Positions 21,022 to 23,633 of a stretch of 64,000 nucleotides of DNA are shown in pieces. The notes beneath the pieces were generated by a model. The model was given only the letters and a program-made list of their open reading frames with translations, did not search any database and had not been told where the DNA came from. The stretch lies in assembly GCA_965222605.1 (NCBI GenBank), contig OZ244960.1:5805280-5869279 (forward strand), written 5' to 3'. Positions within the stretch are counted from its first letter, which is position 1. The number at the start of each line of letters is the position of its first letter. The position numbers were made by a program, and so were the translations under genes. Origin of the DNA: Candidatus Latescibacterota bacterium (GTDB lineage Bacteria > Latescibacterota > UBA2968).

Positions 21022-21250
21022 GGGATTTTGTCTCCTTGCGCAGTTTGGCAAGACTGGGAGGTTTCATCTTTTTATTTAAGCATAAATTTTTTTTCGTCAA
21101 GATGTTTGCGAGGCGGGGTACAACTTTGGCAAGAGTTTAACCTCTGGCTTGCAATAAGGTATTTTTCCTTGCCAAGTGTGTTTGAATCCGCTAAATTACG
21201 GCGTCATAATTTTCGAAATTTTACGGGGATTATCATTTTTACAAAATGCT

Positions 21251-21631
21251 ATGAAACGCGAAAGAATACATTATAACACGGTGCGCGAAGTTTGTTTTGC
21301 GCCGGAAGATCTCGTTCGTCTTTCCGATAATTTGCAGGAAAACGGCGCGCCATGTCATATCCGCCATTTAATGCCCGGGGAGGCAGACCCCGTGCGTTTG
21401 GCTCAGGTCAAAGACGTTATTGAAACGGTACTGACAGGGCGCAAGTACGAGGTTTTGTTGCTGCGCTCGCAGGGCAAGACTTTTACAGAAATCGCGCTGC
21501 TTTTAGAGATTTCAAAAAGTGCGGTGCAAAGTCACTACCGCCTCGCCATACGGCGGGTGCAACGCGCTCTGGGTATAGAACCCGGACAAAAGGTCAAACC
21601 CCCGTCACCATCGCCGTATTCCATGGTCTAA
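21251..21631 (+). CDS. Small LuxR/sigma-70-region-4-type HTH protein
   Basis: Start at MKRERIHY; C-terminal LTGRKYEVLLLRSQGKTFTEIALLLEISKSAVQSHYRLAIRRV is a region-4/LuxR-type HTH. Confidence 0.55.
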   Translation: MKRERIHYNTVREVCFAPEDLVRLSDNLQENGAPCHIRHLMPGEADPVRLAQVKDVIETVLTGRKYEVLLLRSQGKTFTEIALLLEISKSAVQSHYRLAIRRVQRALGIEPGQKVKPPSPSPYSMV

Positions 21632-21655
21632 CTTTCCTCTGTTTGTTTTGTCAAT

Positions 21656-21687
21656 CAGGTTCCGCTTTGCGCGACCTGTTTTTTTTT
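21656..21687 (+). terminator. Rho-independent terminator
   Basis: CAGGTtcCGCtttGCGcgACCTG stem-loop followed by a run of nine T. Confidence 0.65.
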
Positions 21688-21796
21688 GCTCCAAAGCCTC
21701 CAGTCCCTCGCCTTTTTCTAAAAAATGTCGCAGGAGACCCGTGCTTGAGCACGGAGAGGAATGTGACGTGATTGAATGTGGTGTTGCATGTAGATG

Positions 21797-21825
21797 TTGA
21801 CATTCATACCATTTGCAAGTATATT
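21797..21825 (+). promoter_or_regulatory. Consensus-like sigma-70 promoter upstream of tnpB
   Basis: TTGACA (21797-21802), 17-nt spacer, TATATT (21820-21825), about 70 nt before the tnpB ATG. Confidence 0.55.
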
Positions 21826-21895
21826 GGAGTATGATTAAGCTAATAAAAACAATAGTTTGTGTCTATGAATCTGCATTGCGGAGGGTCAATTTTAG

Positions 21896-23134
21896 ATGCA
21901 ATACCTGACAATAAAAGCCCATCTTCGTGGAGAACCTGAACGCTTTGCCATTCTCCGTGACGCAATGCTGTCTGCGACCAAAGTCTATAATGGCTTGATC
22001 TTCCATCTGCGTGAAGAATACGACCAGCATGGGAAAGTCTGTTATTCGGTCAGCCATCTCAACCGTATCGCCCGCGGATTGCCTCGCCACAAGGAATTGT
22101 ACTCCGATGTGGTGGACACCACGCGACAAGAGGTGGGGTGGGCTTTTCGGTCGTTCTTTCAAAAGTGCAAGCGCGACAAGAAGGCACGGCCTCCAGGGTT
22201 CAGGAAGAAGACGTGCCTGTCTCCGCTGCGCTATTCCCACCCCAATAATGGATCCATCAAAGTGATCCACAAACGCGGGATGACATATCTTCGCATGTCC
22301 CTTGGCACCACCCGACAGGACGGTGTGCGCCATATCGTCTTTCGTCTCCACACCCGCCCAGATATTGACCTTCAGAGGTTGAAAAACGTCCAGATCATCT
22401 ACGATACGCACACACGGGATTTCCAAGTCCGTCTGGTGGTCGAAGTGGATATTGTTCAAAAGCTGAGAGAGGCCACCGTTGGTGTAGATATAGGCGAAGA
22501 CTGGCTCATCGCCGCAGATTTCTGTGACAGCACGCGGTATCTGATCTGTGGACGTGAACTTAAGGCCACACGCCGATACTGGCAGAAGGTCAGAGCAAAG
22601 GTCAAACCGCCCAGCCAGGACCATCCCAAGATGTCGAGACGCTATCGCCAGATCGCCCGAAAAGAAGCCCGACAAATCACGCATGCCCTCCATATCGCCA
22701 GCAGACGGTTTGTGGATATGTGTGCCGATAAGGGTGTGGGCACTATCATCCTGGGAGACCTGACCGGCATCCGACAGCACATCGCTTATGGCACAAGGAT
22801 GAATCAACGCCTGCACGCCTGGCCATATGATAGGCTCAGGGCGATGATTGAATACAAGGCCGCACTGTGTGGCATAAAGGTCAAAGTCGTCTCGGAAAAG
22901 TATACCTCGCAGACTTGCCCGCACTGTGGTATAAGAAAGAAATCCAATCGCAAACATCGTGGTTGGTACTCCTGCCTATGTGGCTTTGAAGGTCAAGCGG
23001 ATCTGGTAGGTGCTTTCAATATCCACCGGCAGGTATCTGGGGTTCCCAGTAGTGGGCGTTCGGCACGCCCCGTGGTCTTGGTGTATGATCACCATACGGT
23101 CCACGAAGCTGCAAGTTCTCGAGAGGCAGCCTGA
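21896..23134 (+). CDS. tnpB: TnpB-family RNA-guided nuclease-like protein (IS200/IS605 OrfB)
   Basis: 412 aa; RuvC-I VGVDIGED (Asp198), RuvC-II region IILGDLTGIR (Gly287 where Glu is expected), zinc finger CPHCG...CLCG, RuvC-III QADLVGAFNI (Asp369). Confidence 0.88.
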   Translation: MQYLTIKAHLRGEPERFAILRDAMLSATKVYNGLIFHLREEYDQHGKVCYSVSHLNRIARGLPRHKELYSDVVDTTRQEVGWAFRSFFQKCKRDKKARPPGFRKKTCLSPLRYSHPNNGSIKVIHKRGMTYLRMSLGTTRQDGVRHIVFRLHTRPDIDLQRLKNVQIIYDTHTRDFQVRLVVEVDIVQKLREATVGVDIGEDWLIAADFCDSTRYLICGRELKATRRYWQKVRAKVKPPSQDHPKMSRRYRQIARKEARQITHALHIASRRFVDMCADKGVGTIILGDLTGIRQHIAYGTRMNQRLHAWPYDRLRAMIEYKAALCGIKVKVVSEKYTSQTCPHCGIRKKSNRKHRGWYSCLCGFEGQADLVGAFNIHRQVSGVPSSGRSARPVVLVYDHHTVHEAASSREAA

Positions 23135-23200
23135 AAGTCAGGGCAACTCCCGGAATCCCTCGACTTTAGTCGAGGGAGCACGTCGAGTGTATCTTTGGTG
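23000..23200 (+). ncRNA. Candidate omega/reRNA scaffold overlapping the tnpB 3' end
   Basis: Inferred only from the known position of TnpB guide RNAs, plus the perfect 8-bp hairpin at 23157-23176; boundaries not determined. Confidence 0.3.
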
Positions 23201-23255
23201 TTTATCACAATAGTTGTGAATCGCGTTTTAATTTCATTTTTGAAAGGAGTTTTCC

Positions 23256-23633
23256 ATGGCTGTATTTCTTCATACGCGCATTCGCGTGAGCGATTTGGAT
23301 AAGTCGATCCAGTATTATTGCGATCACTTTGGTTTTGTGCTAAAGAGCCGTTCGGAGAAGTCGCCAGCGGGCAATCAGATCTGCCATCTGGAATTGCCGG
23401 GCAACGAGCATACGCTGGAATTGACGTATTCCGATGATTACGAGTTGAATGTGCCCGAAGATTTGATGCACTTTGCGATCGGCGTGTCCGATTTGATTGC
23501 CTTTTGCGATGAGCTAGAAAAAAATGGACTCGAAATTTGGCCCGGCGATTGGCGAGAGACTTTCCCCACAGGTCGCAAAATGGCGTTTGTCGATGATCCC
23601 GATGGGTATGAAATTGAGTTGTTGGAACGATAA
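23256..23633 (+). CDS. gloA: Lactoylglutathione lyase / VOC-family protein
   Basis: 125 aa; HTRIRVSDLDKSIQYY...HLELPGNEHTLELTY...HFAIGV...DPDGYEIELLE is the glyoxalase I pattern. Confidence 0.85.
   Translation: MAVFLHTRIRVSDLDKSIQYYCDHFGFVLKSRSEKSPAGNQICHLELPGNEHTLELTYSDDYELNVPEDLMHFAIGVSDLIAFCDELEKNGLEIWPGDWRETFPTGRKMAFVDDPDGYEIELLER

Follow-up and report, generated by a model that had tools for sequence, protein, structure and literature searches.

A TnpB with Glycine at the Canonical RuvC-II Position and a Probable Relocated Glutamate on an IS200/IS605-Type Element of a Latescibacterota Bacterium

Introduction

Is a TnpB protein that carries a glycine in place of its canonical RuvC-II glutamate still a nuclease, or has it been turned into a guide-directed DNA-binding protein? 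This question is raised by a tnpB gene in a 64,000-nucleotide stretch of the genome of a Candidatus Latescibacterota bacterium (assembly GCA_965222605.1, contig OZ244960.1, positions 5,805,280 to 5,869,279 of the forward strand), hereafter called the window, whose numbering is used below unless a genomic position is given. An earlier reading of the window made from its letters alone (the sequence-only reading) noticed the glycine and proposed either a catalytic site that has been rearranged, with the acidic residue supplied from elsewhere, or a nuclease-dead, TldR-like RNA-guided DNA binder. Our analysis indicates that the gene very probably encodes a TnpB of a class already described, that with a rearranged RuvC-II site (RIIr-5, TnpB2, or Ealt), most likely an active nuclease carried on a mobile element.

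Rearranged RuvC-II sites have been described by several groups. Among the rearranged groups in the census of TnpBs by Altae-Tran et al. (2023, PNAS, PMC10691335), the largest is RIIr-5, "glutamate replaced with glycine", in which an alternative glutamate, borne by beta-5 and not by beta-4 in a RuvX-like arrangement, compensates. Jiang et al. (2023, Sci Adv, PMC10530073) named the class TnpB2 and placed the alternative glutamate about 45 residues off; they reported that the E467A substitution abolishes cleavage by the mimivirus Fanzor, and that TvTnpB from Thermoplasma volcanium (alternative Glu323) cuts DNA in a manner dependent on a target-adjacent motif (TAM) and without collateral activity. 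A 2023 study in Nucleic Acids Research (PMC10711439) defined "Ealt" as the glutamate that precedes the zinc finger by six residues. In the structure of ApmFz2 obtained by cryo-electron microscopy (PMC11832414), the triad Asp324/Glu467/Asp501 holds Mg2+.

Identity and Active Site of the Protein

The 412-residue product of the open reading frame (ORF) is a TnpB. It scores 192 bits against the NCBIfam family guided_TnpB (curated cut-off 100), 47 bits against Pfam OrfB_IS605 (cut-off 30.5) and 72.7 bits against Pfam Cas12f1-like_TNB (cut-off 26.3). An AlphaFold2 model, for which a 110-sequence homolog alignment served as input, has a mean predicted local distance difference test score (pLDDT) of 87.9 and a predicted template modeling score (pTM) of 0.81. 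With this model, Foldseek found AsCas12f (E = 5e-23), ISDra2 TnpB (E = 1e-15), and Fanzor2 9b0l (E = 1e-11, template modeling score 0.58), and the predicted structure has the TnpB/Cas12f fold with its WED, REC, split RuvC, and zinc finger parts. The coordinates of all features discussed here are collected in Table 1.

Bases 22745-22765 translate to I-I-L-G-D-L-T. In a phmmer comparison with PDB chains, the segment "tiilGdltgir" was aligned opposite "tiqmEdltnir" of AsCas12f (8j12), and since Gly287 is thereby set against the AsCas12f glutamate, the glycine occupies the true RuvC-II glutamate register. The register chosen by eye in the sequence-only reading was thus right, and the codons that it gave for the intact residues Asp198 and Asp369 were correct as well.

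Gly287 is a clade-wide character, neither a chance nor a private substitution. From 5.8 billion proteins searched, 434 relatives were obtained, of which the 110 near-full-length ones, at 44-89% identity, were aligned as the close-homolog set. Gly287 is present in 108 of the 110 and Glu334, located 47 residues further on, in 106; six residues separate Glu334 from Cys341, the first cysteine of the zinc finger (E-KYTSQT-C-PH-C). The sole two close homologs with a glutamate at position 287 ("IIEDMKG") carry valine at position 334.

The same exclusivity was seen at a greater distance. When 1.84 billion cluster representatives were scanned exhaustively with HMMER, 6929 proteins passed E <= 0.001 and 46 passed E <= 1e-30; the best 150 were taken, and the 95 long ones among them were aligned. 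Gly287 occurs together with Glu334 in 80 of these 95 wider relatives, Glu287 together with proline or valine at position 334 in 12, and glutamate at both positions in none. The remaining three have Gly287 without Glu334 and all seem degenerate, one lacking Asp198 as well and two being misaligned or broken. Fisher's exact test gives p = 8e-13 for this pattern, a value that overstates the case because the relatives are not independent.

The genome, searched as a single 6.34-Mb contig, supplies an internal control. It contains 31 intact TnpB-family ORFs of at least 250 residues, which a crude sequence pattern sorted into four with the relocated glutamate, at least 22 with the canonical glutamate, and five unclassified. 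At the two places the sequence is IILGDL and (S/C)EKYTSQT in the four ORFs of this family, and xxxE(D/K)L and (D/N/K)PxYTSQ in the canonical paralogs (at least 22). The first of the two proposals mentioned above, an acidic residue supplied from elsewhere, is therefore borne out by Glu334, which is exclusive with Glu287, and the arrangement is one already published.

In the AlphaFold2 model Asp198 is at the end of strand beta-1 (residues 193-199) and Gly287 at the end of strand beta-4 (residues 281-288), Glu334 comes immediately past strand beta-5 (residues 328-333), and Asp369 is at the start of a helix that runs from residue 368. The strand topology as modeled matches that of the published rearranged RuvC-II class. 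The catalytic triad would then consist of Asp198, Glu334, and Asp369, and the small Gly287 would give the side chain of Glu334, reaching in from the adjoining strand, room to approach the metal site.

The triad and the zinc finger are under purifying selection. Among the four intact copies of the gene in this genome and two from other Latescibacterota metagenome-assembled genomes, the pairwise ratio of nonsynonymous to synonymous divergence (dN/dS) is 0.14-0.25 at a synonymous divergence (dS) of 0.15-0.34, and Asp198, Glu201, Gly287, Glu334, the four cysteines, and Asp369 are kept in all six. For the four intact copies by themselves, dN/dS is 0.15-0.25.

These results bear on the second proposal, that loss of the glutamate ended cleavage and that the protein acts as a guide-directed repressor like TldR. 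A glycine at the canonical glutamate position would be expected of such a protein, and exapted, inactivated TnpBs are described in the PNAS census (PMC10691335). Against this stand the conservation of Glu334 and its covariation with Gly287, the catalytic competence of the same arrangement in ApmFz2 and TvTnpB, and the presence of Asp198, Asp369, and a whole zinc finger in all copies. Further points on both sides come from the promoter, the element, and the guides, and are given below.

Table 1. Features of the tnpB element and its product, with positions in the window
Feature	Position	Strand	Basis or remark
tnpB-only IS200/IS605-type element, non-autonomous, 1.47 kb	about 21720..23186	+	Limits of similarity among copies; empty sites
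Left-end subterminal hairpin CCGTGC-ttga-GCACGG	21739..21754	+	Reading of the sequence; 19-20 nt inside left boundary
Sigma-70-type promoter TTGACA-17-TATATT (predicted)	21797..21825	+	11/12 consensus matches; inside left end
tnpB coding sequence, 412 aa (P0001)	21896..23134	+	ORF; profile, PDB, and model matches
RuvC-I catalytic Asp198 (gat)	22487..22489	+	110/110 close homologs; aligned with Cas12f RuvC-I Asp; ends strand beta-1
Glu201 of D-x-G-E motif	22496..22498	+	Subclade feature; 108/110 close homologs
Gly287 (gga) at canonical RuvC-II glutamate position	22754..22756	+	Ends strand beta-4
Glu334, probable relocated RuvC-II catalytic glutamate	22895..22897	+	Conservation; exclusivity with Glu287; E-x6-CxxC rule
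Zinc finger Cys341-x2-Cys344 ... Cys360-x-Cys362	22916..22981	+	Each Cys in 110/110 close homologs
RuvC-III catalytic Asp369 (gat)	23000..23002	+	108/110 close homologs; aligned with Cas12f RuvC-III Asp
Guide-RNA (omega/reRNA) scaffold, ~160 nt (predicted)	23027..23186	+	Retention in miniature; covariance; ends at right boundary
Right-end subterminal hairpin, 8-bp stem	23157..23176	+	Followed by 10 nt ending TCGA; compensatory changes at all 8 pairs
Probable guide segment GTGTATCTTTGGTGTTTATC	23187..23206	+	First flank bases past boundary; length inferred from other TnpB systems

The RuvC-I Motif and Glu201

Three residues past the RuvC-I aspartate the protein has a second acidic residue (D198-I-G-E201), and we considered whether Glu201, rather than Glu334, stands in for the lost glutamate. 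Its conservation among the close homologs (Table 1) would suit this role, and both of the homologs that have Glu287 carry asparagine at position 201. The wider set tells otherwise: of the 80 proteins with Gly287 and Glu334, 59 have I, V, L, M, or Q at position 201, and glutamate is found there in 3 of the 12 canonical Glu287 proteins (where E, Q, or I is seen), so that Glu201 is uncoupled from the rearranged site. In the published structures and mutants, moreover, the alternative glutamate is the one located before the zinc finger. Glu201 was rejected as the compensating residue because the position varies across the wider Gly287/Glu334 proteins, and we regard this explanation as extremely improbable. 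Glu334 remains our choice for the relocated catalytic residue. At residues 198-200 the motif reads D-I-G here and D-L-G in 104 of the 110 close homologs.

Boundaries, Copies, and Insertion of the Element

The gene is carried by a short element whose limits are set by comparison of its copies. The genome has four intact copies, at 90-91% protein identity, and one decayed copy. In an oriented alignment, the similarity of these five copies and of two miniature derivatives was confined to the element limits, and the flanks were unrelated. Across the copies the left limit is T/AAAAAATGTCGCAGGAGA, followed by the hairpin, and the right limit is a hairpin followed by AGCACGTCGA. The T at 21719 belongs either to the element or to the flank. 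The position of the left hairpin also folds in other copies, with a different stem sequence.

Empty sites were found in relatives. In five genomes of the same genus both flanks align at about 90% identity, up to 21719 and from 23187, and the element is absent; a sixth same-genus genome has a copy of the element elsewhere but none at the orthologous site. These comparisons show that the element was inserted and that its presence varies within the genus. Both subterminal hairpins, insertion without target duplication, and a Y1 transposase in relatives (see below) identify it as an IS200/IS605-type element.

Its ends resemble those of IS608 from Helicobacter pylori, in which the boundaries lie 19 (left) and 10 (right) nucleotides (nt) from the hairpins and the right end reads TCAA (PMC3201880). 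Subterminal hairpins, a boundary spacing of 19-20 and 10 nt, and the lack of a target duplication are common to both. They differ in the right end (TCGA here, TCAA in IS608), in the target or TAM (about CTCC here, TTAC in IS608), and in the absence of tnpA from the copies described here; in addition, the TnpB of IS608 has the canonical site (PMC10691335).

The two ORF-less miniatures, both located outside the window, came from a BLAST search with the element ends. One, of 103 bp (C1:1886444-1886546), consists of the left-end and right-end hairpins only. The other, of 395 bp (C1:1144615-1145009), has the element ends and the full guide-RNA scaffold of about 160 nt, preceded by a promoter-like site, TTGACA-17-TATCCT; it may be a stand-alone guide-RNA satellite.

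One same-genus genome carries, immediately to the left of an 18-nt segment (TGTCTTTGTCTCATTCAT) to which we return below, a different insert of about 144 nt in the orthologous intergenic spacer, which looks like a hot spot of small insertions.

Promoter, Transposase, and Neighboring Genes

A strong dedicated promoter and the lack of tnpA had been taken in the sequence-only reading as compatible with exaptation, and both would fit a TldR-like protein. The predicted promoter did hold up: it is kept in every copy of the element, in three of them with TATAAT as its second hexamer. Being inside the left end and conserved in all copies, it is the element's own and no sign of domestication. The exaptation drawn from it did not hold up, given that the promoter is internal to the element, the gene is present in several copies, orthologous sites are empty, and relatives have a Y1 tnpA.

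The last point concerns 76 related loci, about 35 of which have a Y1 tnpA directly upstream of tnpB and on the same strand; they belong to Bacillota, Thermus, Chloroflexota, Acidobacteriota, and others. On this account the clade is an ordinary Y1-associated IS200/IS605 lineage, of which the copies in this genome are non-autonomous members.

The adjacent genes are flanks. Upstream, a 151-residue ORF (21176-21631) gives weak Pfam matches, below cut-off, to sigma-70 region 4 and to a LuxR-type helix-turn-helix (HTH); downstream is a glyoxalase gene (23256-23633). Both are present at the empty sites too. An association of the Sigma-TnpB type with the upstream HTH gene was considered and rejected, as that gene lies in the flank at empty sites and its Pfam matches are sub-threshold. 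The place of the HTH gene in the flank also counts against a TldR-like repressor.

Guide RNA and Its Targets

A structured guide RNA is predicted at the 3' end of the gene, abutting the right boundary of the element as is characteristic of TnpB systems, and is marked by covariation in the sequence. The scaffold overlaps the last ~105 nt of the tnpB ORF. It is retained in the 395-bp miniature, with compensatory changes in three stems. Of 59 related loci, about 55 are matched at the same position and strand by a covariance model (R1) built from ten close copies. In the R1 alignment 42 of the 52 scaffold pairs show changes on both sides, and 90.8% of the cells pair, compared with 42-52% when the partners are slid, the alignment having been fitted to the model in a way that favors structure; the covariation score, subject to the same fitting, is 0.28 compared with 0.04-0.06 for the slid versions. 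An Rfam scan of 21400-23500 at E <= 1 gave no family match.

The C-terminal tail of the protein (SSGR.ARPVV...HTVHE; residues ~383-412, 23040-23134) shares its DNA with the 5' half of the scaffold, and its pLDDT is low, 49-74. Because the same DNA encodes this half of the scaffold, part of the conservation of the C-terminal protein sequence may be an RNA constraint.

The guide itself would be the first bases of the right flank. For GTGTATCTTTGGTGTTTATC, no other match with a plausible TAM was found in the genome at up to three mismatches. The 20 nt past the right end of each copy match only that copy's own flank in the genome; near-matches of the guides (2-3 mismatches) are at chance level and have no consistent upstream motif. 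The sequence-only reading had suggested searching for a matching genomic target beside a plausible TAM, and these chance-level near-matches are all that such a search returned. Guides that match their own flanks only are what a transposon-borne TnpB predicts, unlike a TldR-like regulator.

The proposal of a nuclease-dead TldR-like binder can now be judged as a whole. The features by which TldR and other exapted TnpBs are recognized are lost catalytic residues or a truncated C-terminal RuvC/zinc-finger part, a fixed syntenic locus, and a guide with its match in a distant host promoter; none of these was found. An exapted gene is expected to be single-copy and syntenic, whereas this one exists in several copies and is missing from its site in same-genus genomes. 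With the triad and zinc finger under purifying selection and no guide having a second genomic site, we consider the proposal highly improbable.

Comparison with Known Systems

With the RIIr-5/TnpB2/Ealt class the protein shares the glycine at the canonical glutamate position, where members of the class have a non-acidic Gly or Pro, and a glutamate ~45-50 residues downstream and six before the zinc finger, a D-hydrophobic-G RuvC-I motif, TnpB size and fold, a 3' guide RNA, and the association with Y1 TnpA in relatives. It differs in the CxC second zinc pair, in the subclade residue Glu201, and in having copies without tnpA. The pattern observed is D-x-G, 133 residues, E-x6-CxxC-x15-CxC-x6-D, which agrees with the published Ealt rule except for the CxC.

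A relocated-glutamate triad is also found in ApmFz2, the Fanzor2 of Acanthamoeba polyphaga mimivirus (PDB 9b0l), with D-to-E and E-to-D spacings of 143 and 34 residues as against 136 and 35 here. This comparison consists of the spacings and the Foldseek match, as a phmmer search of residues 275-385 against the PDB did not reach the Fanzor chains. Fanzors are unlike the present protein in having a D-P-G RuvC-I motif, an N-terminal extension with a nuclear localization signal, and an association with IS607 or with transposons of eukaryotes. Membership in the pro-Fanzor/Fanzor lineage was ruled out by the D-I-G motif and by the relatives, which have Y1 TnpA and not a serine recombinase.

ISDra2 TnpB (PDB 8h1j, 8exa) and AsCas12f (PDB 8j12) have in common with the protein the fold, the aspartates of both RuvC-I and RuvC-III, the zinc finger, and a guide RNA that overlaps the 3' end. 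Their difference lies in the active site, where the canonical glutamate is on beta-4 and proline occupies the position equivalent to Glu334.

Assessment and Proposed Mechanism

Several points weigh against an active nuclease of the rearranged class on a mobile element. No biochemical test of this TnpB or of a member of its immediate subclade was found, and the active-site arrangement seen in the model is one of strand topology only. The strict published regular expression for Ealt, D{P}G x(120,160) E x6 CxxC x(12,18) CxxC x(4,8) D, fails on this protein and is passed by 5 of the 110 close homologs. The cognate tnpA is absent, and the genome's single full-length Y1 TnpA (C1:354399-354758) is encoded far from this locus and is only 33-42% identical to the Y1 tnpA products linked to the clade. 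The copies have diverged by 7-11% in nucleotides, so recent transposition is not demonstrated. The 18 nt TGTCTTTGTCTCATTCAT present in the relatives' empty sites are absent here beside the left end, and the left-hand flank closes with TTTC(T) in this copy, where most of the others have CTCC.

Some of these points can be accounted for. The regular expression fails at one place only, the second zinc pair, which across the clade is C-x-C (Cys360 and Cys362; 22973-22981) instead of CxxC; when the second pair is written C-x(1,2)-C, the expression covers residues 198-369 here and is also satisfied by 104 of the 110 homologs. The strict expression is one paper's search device and not the definition of the class. 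As to the insertion, TGTCTTTGTCTCATTCAT was either lost before it or deleted beside the left end after it. Over the copies the left flanks end in CTCC (three times), TCCC, ATCC, CTCCT(C), and TTTC, with no single exact TAM. Owing to its TTTC(T) flank and the missing 18 nt, the insertion history and the TAM of this copy are not clean.

The missing transposase admits another explanation, namely that the copies are stranded: an active nuclease that has lost its cognate transposase and is kept for a host-level role, for example in defense or regulation. No cognate Y1 tnpA is present in the genome, identical copies of the element were not found there, and the copies are all intact despite their divergence, at a dN/dS of about 0.2. 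However, the flanks of the copies are unrelated, presence and absence vary among same-genus genomes, miniature derivatives have the same ends, and no neighboring gene is conserved. The tnpB-only condition is the most frequent state of TnpB in general (PMC10691335), and purifying selection is possible at the level of the element. Taken together, stranding for a host-level role appears very unlikely. There is a slim chance that the four intact copies have a role other than transposition, such as a host-level RNA-guided one, and that Glu201 alters the chemistry of the rearranged site.

For the preferred reading, a rearranged-site TnpB serving its element, the following course of events is proposed. 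TnpB would be expressed from the element's own left-end promoter and would bind the structured RNA of ~160 nt encoded over its own 3' end, whose guide would be formed by the initial ~16-20 nt of the right flank. The TnpB-RNA complex would cut the empty donor site, in which the flank comes after a short TAM rich in pyrimidines (about CTCC), and the cut site would then allow the element to be copied back after excision, as in other IS200/IS605 elements. The copy in the window belongs to a set of four tnpB-only copies, intact and diverged, in a genome without the clade's cognate Y1 transposase. The analysis itself shows the family to which the protein belongs, the positions of its residues with their conservation and covariation, the limits and mobility of the element, and the covariation of the RNA, whereas we infer the cleavage activity, the TAM, how long the guide is, and the glycine's steric role.

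Conclusions

The importance of this locus beyond annotation is small. It provides a clearly delimited example from a phylum that has been little studied, Latescibacterota, with its boundaries, empty sites, scaffold, and miniatures defined, and the protein is a compact candidate among the rearranged-site nucleases, a class reported to be without collateral cleavage (PMC10530073). A glycine at the canonical RuvC-II position is not to be taken as nuclease death in TnpB-family proteins; one should instead look for a glutamate placed six residues ahead of the zinc finger.

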